The notes under the pieces: model-generated | Seen by the model: the letters and a program-made list of their open reading frames with translations, nothing else | The model's database searches: none | What the model was told of the DNA's origin: nothing | Source of the DNA: Escherichia coli | Lineage (GTDB): Bacteria; Pseudomonadota; Gammaproteobacteria; Enterobacterales; Enterobacteriaceae | Reading direction: 5' to 3' (one strand) | Assembly: GCF_045037415.1 (NCBI RefSeq) | Contig: NZ_CP173438.1 | Length of the DNA stretch: 64,000 nucleotides | Shown here: positions 2,309-38,340 of the stretch, piece by piece | How positions within the stretch are numbered: the stretch's first letter is position 1 | How the letters are laid out: each line of letters opens with the position of its first letter | Program-made: the position numbers and the translations under genes

Positions 2309-2530
<222 letters not shown>

Positions 2531-2568
2531 TTGTTTTACCGCCTGATGGGCGAAGAGAAAGAATGAGT

Positions 2569-2598
2569 AAAAGGTCGGTTTAGCCGGCCTTTTTATTT
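2569..2598 (+). terminator. Putative rho-independent terminator of infA
   Basis: Stem aaaaggucgg/ccggccuuuu (one U-G wobble) with 5-nt loop, followed by a T-run (ctttttatttt). Confidence 0.5.
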
Positions 2599-2713
2599 TG
2601 TGATATGTATGGAGTACTTTAGAAGTATAAGTCCGTAACTTGTCTCGATGTAGATATACTGCACAACTTGTTTACAGTATGAGCAAACAATAATTATCAT
2701 AAAAATTCTTCTT

Positions 2714-2742
2714 GACCGTTTTATTCCAACTCCCTATAGTAG
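2714..2742 (+). promoter_or_regulatory. Putative sigma-70 promoter of serW
   Basis: TTGACC, 17-bp spacer, TATAGT, followed by a GC-rich discriminator (gcgccccgttgcccccc) typical of stable-RNA promoters; about 40 nt upstream of the mature tRNA 5' end. Confidence 0.4.
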
Positions 2743-2783
2743 CGCCCCGTTGCCCCCCATGAGGTCAGGCAAAAAAACAATTT

Positions 2784-2871
2784 GGTGAGGTGTCCGAGTG
2801 GCTGAAGGAGCACGCCTGGAAAGTGTGTATACGGCAACGTATCGGGGGTTCGAATCCCCCCCTCACCGCCA
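2784..2871 (+). tRNA. serW: tRNA-Ser (anticodon GGA), class II tRNA with long variable arm, 88 nt, CCA encoded
   Basis: Acceptor stem GGTGAGG/CCTCACC, anticodon loop CTGGAAA (GGA), T-arm GGGGG-TTCGAAT-CCCCC, discriminator G plus CCA. Confidence 0.92.
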
Positions 2872-2883
2872 TATTTAAAGAAG

Positions 2884-2911
2884 AGCTCGTACGAAAGTAC
2901 GGGCTTTTTTT
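2884..2911 (+). terminator. Putative rho-independent terminator of serW
   Basis: Hairpin cgtac-gaaa-gtacg followed by gggc and a T8 run. Confidence 0.5.
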
Positions 2912-2922
2912 TCGCATTTTAT

Positions 2923-2943
2923 CTGCCTGTACGGCAGTGAACT
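2923..2943. repeat. Direct repeat copy 1 (21 bp, ctgcctgtacggcagtgaact) with internal palindrome CTGCC-N5-GGCAG
   Basis: Exact 21-bp match to copy 2, 60 bp downstream. Confidence 0.7.
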
Positions 2944-2982
2944 TGTCATTATTGGCAGACAGGATCCGCGGCAATTTCTAAG

Positions 2983-3003
2983 CTGCCTGTACGGCAGTGA
3001 ACT
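2983..3003. repeat. Direct repeat copy 2 (21 bp, ctgcctgtacggcagtgaact)
   Basis: Exact 21-bp match to copy 1. Confidence 0.7.
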
Positions 3004-3152
3004 CAAATACTACACGTTTAGCCCGTTGTTAATAAAGCAAAACCATCTCAATCTCCTGCTGCCACCCTTTTTTATCCTTACCTACCCGCAGCACTAATTA
3101 TCAATAACTTACCATCATCATCAAAAAAAGGGTCTGAACCTCCTCCCCCCAT

Positions 3153-3214: not shown

Positions 3215-5491
3215 TTAATGCGCTGCTTCCGCCTTGTGCTTTTGTGCACTCTGGAATCCGTAAGTCAGCTCATTTTTCTCTTTATCCAGCGCGACGGTGA
3301 CCTGACCGCCGTCCACCAGCGAACCAAACAGCAGTTCGTTGGCGAGCGGTTTTTTCAGGTTGTCCTGGATGACACGCGCCATCGGACGTGCGCCCATTGC
3401 CCGGTCGTAACCTTTCTCGGCCAGCCAGTTACGCGCTTCCTGGCTCACTTCCAGAGAAACACCTTTCTGATCCAACTGAACCTGCAACTCGACGATGAAT
3501 TTATCCACCACCTGATGGATCACGTCGGTTGACAGATGATCGAACCAGATAATGTTGTCGAGACGGTTACGGAATTCCGGTGTAAAGATCTTCTTGATCT
3601 CTTCCATCGCATCGGTGCTGTTATCCTGGTGGATAAGACCAATGGATTTGCGCTCAGTTTCCCGTACCCCGGCATTAGTGGTCATCACCAGCACCACGTT
3701 ACGGAAGTCCGCTTTGCGTCCGTTGTTATCGGTCAGCGTACCGTTATCCATCACCTGCAACAGAATATTGAACACGTCCGGGTGCGCTTTCTCGATTTCG
3801 TCCAGCAGCAGCACCGCATGTGGATGCTTGATGACCGCATCAGTCAGCAAACCGCCCTGATCAAAACCAACGTATCCCGGAGGCGCACCAATCAGACGGC
3901 TGACGGTATGGCGTTCCATATACTCGGACATATCAAAGCGCAGAAGCTCAATGCCCAACGCTTTCGAAAGCTGTACCGTCACCTCTGTTTTCCCGACCCC
4001 AGTAGGGCCGGCAAACAGGAACGAACCGACCGGTTTATGTTCGTGACCTAAACCTGCACGCGCCATCTTAATGGCTTCAGTCAGCGCCTCAATGGCTTTA
4101 TCCTGACCGAAGACCAGCATTTTCAGGCGATCGCCGAGGTTTTTCAGGGTATCGCGGTCACTCTGAGAAACACTCTTCTCTGGAATGCGTGCAATACGGG
4201 CCACCACGGATTCAATATCCGCCACATTAACGGTTTTCTTGCGTTTGCTTACCGGCATCAGACGTGCGCGAGCGCCCGCTTCGTCGATAACATCAATCGC
4301 TTTATCCGGCAGATGACGATCGTTAATGTATTTCACCGCCAGCTCTACCGCCGCACGCACCGCTTTTGCGGTATAACGCACGTCGTGGTGCGCTTCATAC
4401 TTCGGTTTCAGGCCATTGATGATTTGAACAGTTTCTTCGATTGACGGTTCAGTAATATCAATTTTCTGGAAGCGACGCGCCAGAGCACGGTCTTTCTCGA
4501 AAATGTTGCTGAACTCCTGATAGGTTGTCGAACCAATTACGCGGATTTTACCGCTGGAGAGCAACGGTTTAATCAGGTTAGCCGCATCGACCTGGCCACC
4601 AGACGCTGCACCCGCACCGATAATGGTGTGGATCTCATCAATAAACAGGATGCTGTTAGTGTCCTGCTCCAGCTGCTTGAGCAACGCTTTAAAACGTTTT
4701 TCAAAGTCGCCGCGATATTTTGTGCCCGCTAACAGGGAACCGATATCGAGAGAGTAAATCGTACAGTCAGCCATCACTTCCGGCACATCGCCCTGAACAA
4801 TTCGCCATGCAAGCCCCTCCGCAATCGCGGTTTTACCGACACCAGACTCCCCCACCAGCAGCGGGTTGTTTTTACGGCGACGGCAGAGAACCTGAATAGC
4901 ACGCTCCAGCTCCTTCTCACGACCAATTAGTGGGTCGATTCCGCCCACTCGCGCAAGCTGATTCAGGTTCGTCGTGAAATTCTCCATACGTTCCTCCCCA
5001 CCAGCTTGTTCTTCGCTGTTTGGCTGGCTGCCAGGATCAGAAGACTGTGTCGGCTCGTCTTTACGCGTGCCATGAGAGATAAAGTTCACCACATCGAGAC
5101 GGCTGACTTCATGTTTGCGCAACAGATATGCCGCCTGCGACTCCTGTTCGCTAAAGATAGCGACCAGAACGTTTGCACCGGTAACCTCATTGCGACCGGA
5201 GGACTGGACATGGAAGACCGCACGTTGCAGTACACGCTGAAAACTCAACGTCGGCTGTGTGTCGCGCTCCTCTTCACTGGCAGGCAGAACGGGTGTGGTT
5301 TGTTCAATAAAGGCTTCCAGTTCCTGACGGAGCGCAACCAAATCTACAGAACACGCTTCCAGCGCCTCCCGGGCAGATGGGTTACTGAGCAGCGCCAGTA
5401 ACAAGTGCTCGACGGTCATAAACTCATGACGGTGCTCGCGCGCTCTGGCGAAAGCCATATTTAAACTGAGTTCCAGTTCTTGATTGAGCAT
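3215..5491 (-). CDS. clpA: ATP-dependent Clp protease ATP-binding subunit ClpA (758 aa)
   Basis: ORF 3215..5506; known N-terminus [14 protein letters not shown] begins at ATG 5491; two AAA+ Walker A motifs GESGVGKT and GPTGVGKT. Confidence 0.95.
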
Positions 5492-34646: not shown

Positions 34647-34995
34647 ATCTCTTTCCTTCTGAAAATTCGTTAACAAACGAACAAAAGTTGTCACACTGAA
34701 AGATATGCAATAAACGTGCATATTTTTATCGGCGCGGTGTAAGAAAAGAGAACTCTCTCCCGGCCTGCACTGCTCACTATATAAAAGCATCGCAAGAATA
34801 ACTTTAGCCAGGGTTTGAGACTATAGCTCGGATTAAAAAACGGTATTTAACAAATTTTTATGCGTATTTGCTCTATGTGATAAAGCCAAATCGGCACAAG
34901 AGAAGTGAATTAATCTTTAATAAAAGGTTAAAATCAGCGGATAATTTTGCGGCACGCAGTCACTGCGGCAGCGACTGCGTGCTCGAAAGAAGTTA

Positions 34996-35472
34996 TCAGT
35001 GGAGGAAATAGTTTTCGGTAACGTTATTTTGCCCTTCATCGTCAGTCGGTAACAGCAGTTGATGGGCATTAGCTTCAAGAATGACCATCGAAATCTGCTC
35101 TTCGCTCTGACGCACGAACCATGCAAACTGCTCATAGGTTACGCCCTGCATAACGGATAAAGACTGGCAAACCACCAGCTTTGGCAGATTATCATCCTGC
35201 ATATCAAGAAATGCTTTCACGGTCAGCGAACTGGCATTGATGGCTGATAAATCCGCCGCCAGCGGCAATACGGCTGAAGGTCGGACTTCCGCCATGGCAG
35301 AAAACAGGATCGTGTTATCGATCAGATCGATTTTAGCATCAAAGACACCGTCGAAATTCTGCATATGGGGCAGATGCAGAGCCTGACAGTTATCACATTC
35401 AAAAAAACTCATCCCCAGGTCATCGAGCCATTGACGCAACGTATCCAGACCAGGAACGACCAGCGATGTCAT
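34996..35472 (-). CDS. ybjN: YbjN-family protein (putative sensory transduction regulator)
   Basis: ORF 34996..35520; N-terminus MTSLVVPGLDTLRQW at ATG 35472; 158 aa. Confidence 0.85.
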   Translation of the reverse strand: MTSLVVPGLDTLRQWLDDLGMSFFECDNCQALHLPHMQNFDGVFDAKIDLIDNTILFSAMAEVRPSAVLPLAADLSAINASSLTVKAFLDMQDDNLPKLVVCQSLSVMQGVTYEQFAWFVRQSEEQISMVILEANAHQLLLPTDDEGQNNVTENYFLH

Positions 35473-35559
35473 AATTTTGTACAACCTCTTCCGATAAAAA
35501 GACCGGCACAGCTTACGCAAAAAGCGCAGGCAAAACCATGATCAGTAATGTGATTGCGA

Positions 35560-36462
35560 CTAACCACCCGTTTTCAGGCAATATTCTGTCGTAGCGTGGC
35601 GTTCGATCCAGCGGATCATTTTACCCGCGATGTCGATACCGGTGGTTTTTTCTATTCCTTCCAGCCCTGGCGACGCATTCACTTCCATCACCAACGGCCC
35701 GCGATTAGCACGCAGAATATCCACACCAGCAACGTCCAGCGCCATCGTTCGCGCGGCTTTTATCGCGATTTCACGCTCCTGTGGTGTGATACTGGCGACG
35801 CTTGCCGCGCCGCCACGATGCAAATTGGAACGAAAATCGCCCTCTTTCGCCCGCCGTTCAATCGCAGCGACTACTTCATCGCCAACAACCAGACAGCGGA
35901 TATCGCACCCTTGCGCCTCTTTGATATATTCCTGCACCAGAATATGCGCGTTCAGACCGCGGAAAGCGTCAATCACGCTTTCCGCCGCCTGACGCGTCTC
36001 CGCCAGCACGACGCCAATTCCCTGCGTGCCTTCAACCAGCTTGACCACCAGCGGCGCACCACCGACCATGTCGATTAAATCGCTGGTATCATCCGGCGAA
36101 TGCGCAATGCCCGTGACAGGCAGGTCGATGCCCTGACGCGCCAGCAGTTGCATGGAACGCAATTTGTCACGCGCCCGGGCAATGGCGACCGACTCATTGA
36201 GCGGATAGCTCCCCAGCATCTCGAACTGGCGCAGTGCCGCCGTCCCATAAAAGGTAATGGCGGTGCCAATACGCGGGATCACTGCGTCAAAATGGGGTAA
36301 CTTGCGGCCTTTGTAGTGAATAGAAGACGCCGCAGGATTTATGTTCATATAGCAAGAAAGCGGATCAAGAATTTCAACCAGGTGACCGCGCTGTATAGCG
36401 GCTTCACGCAGCCGCTTACACGAATAGAGCGTTCCATCCCGGGACAATATGGCAATTTTCAC
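35560..36462 (-). CDS. rimK: Ribosomal protein S6 glutaminyl ligase RimK (ATP-grasp)
   Basis: 300-aa ORF recognised as RimK. Confidence 0.92.
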
Positions 36463-36522
36463 CCTGCACCTCTCTGTCAGACCTGGTCAAAAGCCCGCGT
36501 ATCATACATCGACGTGGCAGTT

Positions 36523-37245
36523 TTAGCGCGTCGCCCAACCCTGTTTGTGCAAATAATCCAGAATAAATGGGCGGCTTTCTTTAATGATTGTTCGGCGGAT
36601 ATGATCGCTCCAGGTATCCCGGCGATTATTGCTGCCACGGGTGAGGTAATATTCCGCCAGTTGCTCGTCATACTGCGCCAGTGCGTCTTTATCCAGCGGT
36701 TGATAGCTGTTTTCATGCACCAAAATGGAGGCCGGTAAACGCGGCTTAAGATCCGGATTATCCGCAGGCCAGCCAAGGCACAGCCCAAACAGCGGCAGAA
36801 CATGCTGCGGTAATTTCAGCAGTTCCGTCACCGCTTCAATATTATTGCGCAGGCCGCCGATATATACCCCGCCCAATCCCAGCGATTCCGCTGCGGTTAA
36901 TGCATTCTGCGCCATCATTGCCGTATCAACGACACCGAGCAACAGTTGTTCCGCCAGGCCGAGCTGAGCATCCGGACAGATCTGTAAATGGCGGTTAAAG
37001 TCGGCACAGAACACCCAAAACTCTGCCGCTTGCGCTACGTGTTTTTGCCCGCCGGTCAGCGTCACCAGTTCTTCACGTAACGCTTTGTCGGTAATGCGGA
37101 TAATGCTACTGCACTGCAAAAAACTGGAACTGGACGTCGCACGGGCGCTGTTAATAATCGCCTCACGCTGCGCTTCGGAAATGGGTTCATCAGTGAAATG
37201 GCGAATGGAGCGATGGCCACAAATAAGTTCAATGGTTGGCGTCAT
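36523..37245 (-). CDS. nfsA: Oxygen-insensitive NADPH nitroreductase NfsA
   Basis: 240-aa ORF MTPTIELICGHRSIRHFTDEPIS... recognised as NfsA. Confidence 0.93.
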   Translation of the reverse strand: MTPTIELICGHRSIRHFTDEPISEAQREAIINSARATSSSSFLQCSSIIRITDKALREELVTLTGGQKHVAQAAEFWVFCADFNRHLQICPDAQLGLAEQLLLGVVDTAMMAQNALTAAESLGLGGVYIGGLRNNIEAVTELLKLPQHVLPLFGLCLGWPADNPDLKPRLPASILVHENSYQPLDKDALAQYDEQLAEYYLTRGSNNRRDTWSDHIRRTIIKESRPFILDYLHKQGWATR

Positions 37246-37516
37246 TATCTTTTTCTCTTTCTGAACGTGAATATTGCGGTGGATGGTTCATCAGCTGTGG
37301 GGCAAGACGTTTTGCCACCTGAAGAATAACCACCACCGCAGCGGGAAGCATGAGCAAAACACCGAGAAAAATCATCAGAATCTGCACTTCTGGCCGAGAA
37401 AATGGCTCAGGTAGCGACAGGGAGTCGCTTACCGACAGCAGCGCCACCGCCAGCAACATCATTCCGATAAATTCCAGTATCAACACGCTTTTAGGCAATT
37501 TACCGATCGCGCGCAT
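37229..37516 (-). CDS. ybjC: Small membrane protein YbjC
   Basis: 95-aa ORF with two hydrophobic segments; 3' end overlaps the nfsA start by 17 nt. Confidence 0.8.
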   Translation of the reverse strand: MRAIGKLPKSVLILEFIGMMLLAVALLSVSDSLSLPEPFSRPEVQILMIFLGVLLMLPAAVVVILQVAKRLAPQLMNHPPQYSRSEREKDNDANH

Positions 37517-37675
37517 ACGCTTCCCTCTGCAAAGTGAGCCTTCAGTCTAAAACTTTTCACTGTATTGTGTTTAACAGTTATAGCTTTTAGCAATTAATGC
37601 AACAGGTTAAACCTACTTTCAGCGAATACATTTTAGCGTGATCATTACAGGCATAAATCTATGAGGAGAGAAATA

Positions 37676-37933
37676 ATGCAAACCGTTATTTTTGGTCGTC
37701 CGGGTTGCCCTTACTGTGTGCGTGCAAAAGATCTGGCTGAGAAATTGAGCAATGAACGCGATGATTTCCAGTATCAGTATGTAGATATTCGTGCGGAAGG
37801 GATCACTAAAGAAGATCTACAACAAAAGGCAGGTAAACCCGTAGAAACCGTGCCGCAGATTTTTGTCGATCAGCAACATATCGGCGGCTATACCGATTTT
37901 GCTGCATGGGTGAAAGAGAATCTGGACGCCTGA
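37676..37933 (+). CDS. grxA: Glutaredoxin 1
   Basis: ORF 37661..37933; N-terminus MQTVIFGRPGCPYC (CPYC active site) at ATG 37676 with RBS aggagag. Confidence 0.93.
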   Translation: MQTVIFGRPGCPYCVRAKDLAEKLSNERDDFQYQYVDIRAEGITKEDLQQKAGKPVETVPQIFVDQQHIGGYTDFAAWVKENLDA

Positions 37934-37943
37934 TCGTCTGACA

Positions 37944-37976
37944 AGCCCTCGCATTGAGGGCTTTATTGATTTTTTC
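37944..37976 (+). terminator. Rho-independent terminator of grxA
   Basis: Stem gccctc/gagggc with 5-nt loop followed by tttattgatttttt. Confidence 0.55.
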
Positions 37977-38340
37977 TGTGCTGTGGTTTAAACAAACTAC
38001 TGATAAATAAGAAACACAATGCCCCCAGCGCACACCAGAACACCGCACTTAATAACCATGCCAGCTCTTGCCAGAATGAGCGCGTCGGTGAAAAAAACAG
38101 CCGCATAATGAGCATCGAGCAGGGTGCCGCCAGCATTGCGCCAAACAGAGGTTTCAGGACTTCTCTACGATGTGAAAAGAAGCTGGCAACTGCACCAGGA
38201 AGAATGAAAAATAGCAAACCGATTTCAGGATGCCCGGCAGCCCGAAAAGCGCCTTTCATGTGCGTCGCCAGAAAAAGACACACCACAATGAAGAGGACAA
38301 AACAGCAGATTGCCCCCGCCCAACGTTGTTTATGTTTCAC
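37963..38340 (-). CDS. ybjM: Inner membrane protein YbjM
   Basis: 125-aa hydrophobic ORF at the conserved position. Confidence 0.8.
   Translation of the reverse strand: MKHKQRWAGAICCFVLFIVVCLFLATHMKGAFRAAGHPEIGLLFFILPGAVASFFSHRREVLKPLFGAMLAAPCSMLIMRLFFSPTRSFWQELAWLLSAVFWCALGALCFLFISSLFKPQHRKNQ

Follow-up and report, generated by a model that had tools for sequence, protein, structure and literature searches.

The 17-nucleotide overlap between ybjC and nfsA in Escherichia coli: a known operon junction whose length appears to follow from the first codons of nfsA

Introduction

The genes ybjC, nfsA, rimK and ybjN (b0850-b0853) of Escherichia coli K-12 form an operon of the mar/sox/rob regulon. 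RegulonDB lists "ybjC-nfsA-rimK-ybjN" as one unit, which SoxS activates (paraquat) and OxyR represses (PMC4207228). The present analysis concerns the junction between ybjC and nfsA, where the two genes overlap by 17 nucleotides (nt), in a stretch of 64,000 nt from a non-K-12 E. coli (contig NZ_CP173438.1), referred to below as the window. The gene order, the overlap, the MarA/SoxS site, the leader and the neighbouring grxA all match K-12. No difference of substance from K-12 was seen, and the NfsA of the window differs from the protein in Protein Data Bank entry 1F5V at three residues.

Two other kinds of gene junction are useful for comparison. The canonical coupled gene pairs overlap by 4 nt (ATGA) or by 1 nt (TAATG or TGATG). 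Like these pairs, ybjC and nfsA are co-directional, leave no intergenic space and carry the downstream Shine-Dalgarno (SD) sequence inside the upstream gene; the TAATG form is used by Pantoea at the very same junction. The difference is that ybjC and nfsA are spaced at -17, with a stop codon that comes from codons 5-6 of nfsA and not from its start codon. The second kind is the coat/lysis junction of phage MS2 (-50), which is explained by an RNA-unfolding model and in which the upstream ribosome, as in ybjC, crosses the downstream start before it terminates (PMC12548453). Unlike the MS2 junction, the nfsA initiation region has no predicted inhibitory structure (z = +1.52 in the folding comparison described below), and an unfolding mechanism would therefore have no target at nfsA.

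The Overlap and Its Two Gene Ends

Open reading frame (ORF) analysis places the shared 17 nt in two different frames of the minus strand (Table 1). In the nfsA frame they read M-T-P-T-I-(E), and in the ybjC frame (N)-D-A-N-H-stop. The nfsA ATG occupies 37245..37243 and the ybjC TGA 37231..37229, and this TGA is assembled from the NfsA codons for Ile5 (ATT) and Glu6 (GAA). A first-pass annotation of the window, made from its letters, had described a 17-nt overlap of the two genes on the same strand, and this description is borne out by the ORFs, by RefSeq and by other genomes. Identical boundaries are annotated by RefSeq in a 100%-identical E. coli genome (L001; ybjC 2085-2372, nfsA 2356-3078). 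A 3.2-kb query around the overlap was 100% identical in several complete E. coli genomes and present in 5402 of 5426, and the 111-nt junction itself was found in 5374 of these 5426 genomes.

Both gene ends are supported by several measures. The starts of ybjC and of nfsA are each the first start codon past an in-frame stop. NfsA residues 1-240 align to 1F5V (E = 2.4e-160), and both Vibrio Frp (1BKJ, residues 1-240) and NfrA1 (3N2S) align to NfsA starting at residue 1; this full-length homology makes NfsA a member of the NfsA/Frp (group A) oxygen-insensitive nitroreductases. A nucleotide alignment of 13 lineages revealed that strong conservation sets in precisely at the nfsA ATG. The ratio of non-synonymous to synonymous substitution rates (dN/dS) of nfsA is 0.04-0.06 against E. 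albertii, Salmonella and Citrobacter.

Origin of the Overlap Length

A single contig scan with YbjC gave five Escherichia loci only, and the wider diversity was reached through a search of representative sequences and look-ups of exact proteins. Among the 13 lineages examined in which ybjC is linked to nfsA, 11 have an overlap of exactly 17 nt, from Escherichia to Erwinia: E. coli, E. albertii, E. whittamii, Salmonella, Citrobacter amalonaticus, Mangrovibacter, Erwinia amylovora and four metagenomic lineages. NfsA codons 5-6 are ATT GAN in 11/11 of them, which makes a TGA in the ybjC frame. Both exceptions encode Ile5 by ATC: Pantoea has TAATG and an overlap of 1 nt, and Tatumella has a spacer of 34 nt with a strong AAGGAG. 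Because ATT GAN accompanies every 17-nt overlap and ATC both exceptions, the overlap length is fixed by the NfsA codons. The ybjC frame stays open past the nfsA ATG and closes at the first stop available to it, the TGA within Ile5-Glu6 (ATT GAA). When the ATT of Ile5 in E. coli was changed to ATC in a computed sequence, YbjC grew to 108 amino acids (aa) and the overlap to 56 nt; the other frame of E. coli that is not used by nfsA would stop at TAATG, with an overlap of 1 nt.

The C-terminus of YbjC agrees with this account. Across the 11 lineages with the overlap, YbjC varies from 89 to 102 aa and the tails are scarcely alignable. About 13 divergent YbjC clusters (50% identity) end in D-x-[D/N]-H despite their varied tail lengths, and clusters without nfsA downstream do not have this ending. 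These comparisons show that the conserved N-terminus of NfsA, M-T-P-T-I-[E/D], determines how long the overlap is and gives YbjC its D-x-[D/N]-H end. The terminal histidine of YbjC is a by-product of the overlap. The arrangement is old, as it is present in both Enterobacteriaceae and Erwiniaceae.

Two of the loci deviate within or beyond nfsA. On an Erwinia amylovora-type contig (L014, 3378-3971) nfsA was called with 197 aa and rimK is absent, with the 17-nt overlap kept; the absence of rimK in Erwinia agrees with PMC3181261. E. albertii NBRC 107761 (L002, 4272-4994) carries a frameshift near codon 210 of nfsA followed by premature stops (the reading ends ...RRDNLERPYSPDDY-stop), which may be a pseudogene or an error of the draft assembly.

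Co-Transcription and Regulation

The first-pass annotation had also proposed that the overlap marks a single transcription unit, in which rimK and ybjN follow nfsA at short gaps. The layout is as proposed, and the unit had already been curated with SoxS and OxyR as its regulators. The four genes lie on one strand in the order ybjC-nfsA-rimK-ybjN, divergent from grxA, with 60 nt between nfsA and rimK and 87 nt between rimK and ybjN. A terminator scan found no intrinsic terminator between the operon genes; the promoter and terminator scans both performed at chance level. According to the literature, the ybjC promoter controls an operon that contains nfsA and has been used as an oxidative-stress reporter (PMC6375286). 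PMC11936445 credits Paterson et al. (2002) with mapping the transcription start together with a class I site for SoxS, and with finding that ybjC and nfsA are coordinately regulated. A ybjC::kan insertion raised the minimal inhibitory concentration (MIC) of nitrofurantoin 2.25-fold, for which the authors blamed weaker expression of nfsA, which lies downstream (PMC2680486). In Salmonella, RamA shifts ybjC and nfsA in parallel, by -2.9-fold and -3.2-fold (PMC3139621). By these reports, from which co-transcription and regulation are taken here, the four genes form one co-transcribed unit that was already known.

The promoter of the unit could be placed with the help of published sites. Chromatin immunoprecipitation sequencing (ChIP-seq) of MarA listed gcattaattgctaaa for the region between grxA and ybjC, with strong binding in vitro (PMC5684230), and the marbox of the window was located solely by matching this sequence. 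A scan of the whole window with a degenerate marbox consensus gave 16 matches against 17.2 expected and missed the true site. The 5' untranslated region of ybjC is 21 nt long with the SD sequence TGCAGAGG (PMC5230787), which puts the transcription start near 37537. By our own calculation from this published leader, the marbox centre lies at about -56 from the start, fitting a class I promoter. The marbox stands upstream of the -35 region, as in class I members of the mar/sox/rob regulon, with the activation itself known from the literature. According to the literature, the ybjC promoter, which has a poor -35 element, starts the transcript about 21 nt upstream of ybjC and is activated by MarA, SoxS or Rob at the marbox (37600..37586); repression by OxyR has been reported.

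Further layers of control have been described for this region. An in vitro genomic SELEX (systematic evolution of ligands by exponential enrichment) peak of the RpoN holoenzyme was reported in the nfsA-rimK spacer, at K-12 position 891170 (PMC8743547). A poor sigma-54-like motif, TGCCAC-N5-TGTAT, lies in this spacer at 36504-36519 (-), and rimK-ybjN may own an extra promoter. According to PMC10953011, the small RNA (sRNA) SdsN137 represses nfsA as well as ybjC, and repression of nfsA by FnrS has been reported too. Duplexes predicted between the operon RNA and SdsN137, whose sequence was taken from K-12 (L019, 2422-2558), had unrealistic, non-specific energies, and no conclusion was drawn from them. 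A simple complementarity search gave a single perfect 10-mer complement, CGCCAUUUCA at 37194-37203 (-), which would join nfsA codons 15-18 to nt 90-99 of SdsN137. Chance alone would give about 0.2 such matches in the search space, and this one is located outside the nfsA initiation region.

Translation Initiation of nfsA

The gene nfsA has no intergenic leader, and its SD-like AAGAG sits 9 nt upstream of the ATG. In every lineage compared, the ybjC tail holds an SD-like motif 6-9 nt ahead of the nfsA ATG; E. coli and Salmonella have the weakest forms (AAGAG/AGAG), and strong ones are seen elsewhere (AGGAG, AAGGA). A hairpin that might mask the nfsA start was looked for by folding the E. coli junction RNA (37310..37196) and was not found. 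The minimum free energy of this RNA was -11.2 kcal/mol against a mean of -15.97 for shuffled sequences (z = +1.52), and 190 of the 200 shuffles folded at least as well. From the presence of an own SD sequence in every lineage and from the unfolded junction we infer independent initiation of nfsA.

It was concluded in a review that coupling is best at spacings of -4 to +3 and declines with overlap, with none at -25 in one series (PMC12548453). The spacing of -17 puts ybjC and nfsA outside the range of -4 to +3 that defines the -4/-1 coupled class. Since published coupling drops steeply beyond an overlap of -4, ribosomes that end ybjC 14 nt past the nfsA ATG would add modest coupling at most. 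In the mechanism that we propose, the ribosome binding site of nfsA (the weak, A-rich AAGAG) and its ATG lie within the last codons of ybjC, and nfsA would be translated mostly by ribosomes that bind this unstructured initiation region directly. It is therefore most likely that nfsA mainly initiates independently, with weak or modest coupling to ybjC at most. The consequences to be expected would be tight co-expression, polar effects of insertions in ybjC on nfsA, and an nfsA initiation region that doubles as coding sequence.

Taken together, the overlap is an ordinary feature at the junction of the documented stress-induced ybjC-nfsA-rimK-ybjN operon of E. coli. That this junction has its length set by nfsA codons, and that nfsA is mainly self-initiating, is the best overall explanation, and we hold it with good confidence. 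Several points weigh against it. The nfsA SD sequence is weak in E. coli and Salmonella, and in all Enterobacteriaceae sampled, insertions and deletions in the tail notwithstanding, the ybjC frame runs on to one and the same stop; the two together could mean that reading through into nfsA has been selected, which would favour coupling. The 11 lineages that share the overlap are relatives of one another, and the association with ATT does not amount to 11 independent events. Co-transcription and regulation rest on the literature, in the case of Paterson et al. (2002) at second hand. Finally, if rimK-ybjN do have an internal promoter, the four genes may not always be one unit.

Alternative Explanations

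One alternative, which we consider unlikely, is that nfsA translation depends on that of ybjC. Terminating ribosomes would step back 14 nt and reinitiate at the AUG, and the opening of the ybjC frame would have been selected for this purpose. Such dependence would explain why the same stop is reached in 11 lineages and in about 13 protein clusters, at lengths from 89 to 113 aa, why Ile5 is ATT in 11/11 while nearby synonymous sites vary, and why E. coli and Salmonella manage with a weak SD sequence; coupling without RNA structure has also been documented in other gene pairs (PMC12548453). However, the sharp fall of published coupling past -4 and its absence at -25 (PMC12548453) speak against it, as does an own SD sequence in every lineage, several of them strong. 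Tatumella has no overlap and Pantoea one of -1. Moreover, an unstructured and A-rich initiation region favours direct binding of the 30S subunit.

A broader version of this idea is that the -17 geometry itself is selected and that ribosomes finishing ybjC gate nfsA initiation, be it by coupling or by occlusion. The proposal is made because, for all the insertions and deletions in the tail, Enterobacteriaceae and Erwinia have kept the ybjC frame open across the nfsA start, and because Ile5 stays ATT. We regard it as speculative and give it rather little weight. If true, gating would determine how much NfsA is made for a given promoter activity, and control by SdsN137 and FnrS would gain a target site that is translated.

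The effect of the overlap might also be negative, in that ribosomes elongating through the end of ybjC would cover the nfsA SD sequence and AUG and so cap NfsA relative to ybjC translation. A ribosome covers about 30 nt as it elongates, and both elements lie wholly within translated ybjC. The repression of nfsA and ybjC by SdsN137 that PMC10953011 reports also marks the region as a regulatory target. Nevertheless, the same geometry occurs in many positively coupled gene pairs, and sequence does not tell occlusion from neutrality; this reading seems quite improbable.

It is very improbable that nfsA has a promoter of its own inside ybjC, in which case the overlap would be uninformative on co-transcription. 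A sigma-70-like match does exist at 37271..37244 (-), with TTCACG, a 16-nt spacer and GATAAT. Its -10 element covers the nfsA ATG, however, so that the transcript would be without the start codon, and this match could not be expected to drive nfsA. The region holds 3 promoter-like matches against a shuffle mean of 4.4. The raised nitrofurantoin MIC of the ybjC::kan mutant, attributed to lower nfsA expression, and the joint movement of ybjC and nfsA under SoxS and RamA argue against an internal promoter as well.

We give next to no credence to a programmed +1 shift on an A-run (GAA AAA G) that would fuse YbjC to NfsA into a membrane-anchored nitroreductase. The nfsA frame is +1 to that of ybjC, no stop lies between the A-run and the ATG, and in Salmonella the nfsA ATG is directly preceded by 8 A in a row. 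On the other hand, Mangrovibacter, Erwinia and two metagenomic lineages lack the A-run, the folded junction RNA contains no stimulatory structure, and the sole fusion ORFs (P0102, P0121 and P0187) look like sporadic frameshift or assembly variants. The fusion was rejected, as the A-run is not conserved. Where present in the ybjC tail before the nfsA ATG, the run counts eight in Salmonella (L007, ~4260-4274), seven in C. amalonaticus and five in E. coli; that of Salmonella is a possible slippage or phase-variation site, not conserved more widely.

Long same-strand overlaps are sometimes mis-annotated, but an artefact here, whether through a misplaced nfsA start or through a ybjC that does not code for protein, is hardly conceivable and is excluded by an nfsA ATG that is the first start past an in-frame stop, by the collinearity of NfsA with 1F5V, 1BKJ and 3N2S from residue 1, by nucleotide conservation beginning right at that ATG, and by a YbjC that fits DUF1418 end to end, has a dN/dS of 0.2-0.3 and was seen at the membrane as a fusion to green fluorescent protein (GFP).

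The YbjC Protein

YbjC belongs to the Pfam family DUF1418 (PF07214), which it matches over residues 1-92 with 142.6 bits against a cut-off of 22 (3.5e-42). The AlphaFold2 model is a helical hairpin of two helices (9-29 and 42-76) followed by a charged C-terminal tail of low confidence, with a mean pLDDT (predicted local distance difference test score) of 84. The dN/dS of ybjC is 0.19-0.29 against E. albertii, Salmonella and Citrobacter, which means purifying selection that is 4-5 times more relaxed than on nfsA. It was reported that YbjC-GFP is found at the membrane and that a ybjC knockout raises n-butanol tolerance (PMC4888631). With this phenotype and localisation published, the check by ybjC deletion that the first-pass annotation had suggested is partly done. 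YbjC is thus modelled as a fast-evolving inner-membrane protein of two helices, a helical hairpin with a charged C-terminal tail.

The family is tiny: a search of 1.84 billion representatives gave 91 clusters at E <= 1e-3, of which many are fragments, and its nameable members are all from Enterobacterales. Near-invariant residues are P8, E15, G18, M56, P58, A59, P73 and L75. In the YbjC alignment neither Cys nor His is conserved and no cofactor motif is seen. YbjC is called a "membrane-bound oxidase" in PMC10953011; this label finds no support in the sequence, which, like the bare hairpin of the model, argues against an enzyme and is no proof. The earlier statement that the function of YbjC is not established holds for this DUF1418 hairpin.

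A role specific to NfsA is unlikely. In nearly all lineages ybjC is the first gene past the promoter that diverges from grxA. At locus L015 (3501-4720) nfsA is lost, and ybjC stands beside grxA and is followed directly by rimK; in Yersinia aldovae (L017, 3501-4399) nfsA and rimK are both absent, and ybjC stands beside grxA and is followed by ybjN. The YbjC of either locus is without the D-x-[D/N]-H end, and the synteny of ybjC in lineages without nfsA agrees with PMC3181261. Because ybjC is kept beside grxA where nfsA has been lost, its role would not be tied to NfsA.

Variants of ybjC were also observed within E. coli and its relatives. Two CTGTCG direct repeats, 18 nt apart, lie at 37415-37438 (-) in the loop-coding part of the gene. 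In-frame loop deletions of YbjC are common in E. coli, including a form of 89 aa without LSVSDS (P0044, 720 contigs) and others of 86, 91 and 92 aa. Slippage between the repeats could account for the 89-aa form, and the loop, whether periplasmic or cytoplasmic, appears to tolerate changes in length. Frameshifted forms of 117-151 aa (P0014, P0052, P0073 and P0079) occur in Shigella flexneri and some E. coli; they read the third frame deep into nfsA and end in PTKRYVKNW. One of them, P0073, has annotations on 10 contigs of Shigella flexneri, which suggests that ybjC is decaying there.

Neighbouring Features

The features of the locus are collected in Table 1. The gene grxA is a conserved neighbour of ybjC in every lineage examined except one (L010), which has ybjM in its place and no grxA. 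At the other end of the operon, a perfect hairpin begins 14 nt past the ybjN stop. It has no U-tract, was missed by the terminator scan, and may be the 3' end of the operon or a transcript stabiliser. A search of 34700..38000 against Rfam gave nothing above threshold. A sub-threshold match to the C0299 sRNA at 34885-34980 (+), between ybjN and potF (21.5 bits against a gathering score of 40, E = 0.66), is probably due to chance.

Table 1. Features of the ybjC-nfsA-rimK-ybjN locus, with positions in the window.
Feature	Position	Strand	Basis
Perfect hairpin, 10-bp stem (GCACGCAGTC, 11-nt loop, GACTGCGTGC)	34952..34982	-	sequence
ybjN coding sequence, 158 aa	34996..35472	-	ORF, RefSeq, Pfam
rimK coding sequence, 300 aa, GTG start, ribosomal protein S6 glutamate ligase	35560..36462	-	ORF, RefSeq, Pfam
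nfsA coding sequence, 240 aa, oxygen-insensitive NADPH nitroreductase A	36523..37245	-	ORF, RefSeq, Pfam Nitroreductase PF00881, 1F5V
ybjC-nfsA overlap, 17 nt, ATGACGCCAACCATTGA	37229..37245	-	ORFs, sequence, lineage comparison
ybjC coding sequence, 95 aa, DUF1418	37229..37516	-	ORF, RefSeq, Pfam PF07214
Weak SD-like AAGAG of nfsA, A-rich, within ybjC tail codons	37255..37259	-	sequence
SD sequence of ybjC, TGCAGAGG	37524..37531	-	sequence and table of PMC5230787
Candidate -10 hexamer TAGACT, ybjC promoter	37544..37549	-	position from sequence; -10 role inferred
MarA/SoxS/Rob site, marbox core gcattaattgctaaa, ybjC promoter	37586..37600	-	exact match to MarA ChIP-seq site
grxA (glutaredoxin 1), divergent from ybjC	37676..37933	+	ORF, RefSeq, lineage comparison

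Significance

The feature is real and its interpretation as an operon junction is correct; both were already known, and what is added by explaining the overlap length is minor. What is new here is all minor: the stop codon from Ile5 and Glu/Asp6, the exceptions in Pantoea and Tatumella, and the SD sequences per lineage together with the unfolded junction. The overlap and the operon are otherwise textbook-level knowledge, and the account by codons 5-6 is a tidy explanation and no discovery.

The medical side of the locus lies in nfsA, which is the main activator of nitrofurans and whose loss is the first step to nitrofurantoin resistance. For this reason, determinants of the NfsA level, including polar ybjC mutations and insertions at the junction, carry some clinical relevance. 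An insertion of this sort was seen in E. coli 21EVA (NZ_CP138427.1; L020, 2584-3280), where the insertion sequence IS1 lies at the ybjC/nfsA overlap and the match to the window breaks at ~37233. The IS1 lengthens ybjC to 101 aa and cuts nfsA off from both its start and its promoter. It has probably inactivated nfsA, in the way that has been linked to resistance against nitrofurantoin. Since the ribosome binding site of nfsA lies inside ybjC, mutations that are listed under ybjC may in fact alter nfsA expression and should be considered in that light.

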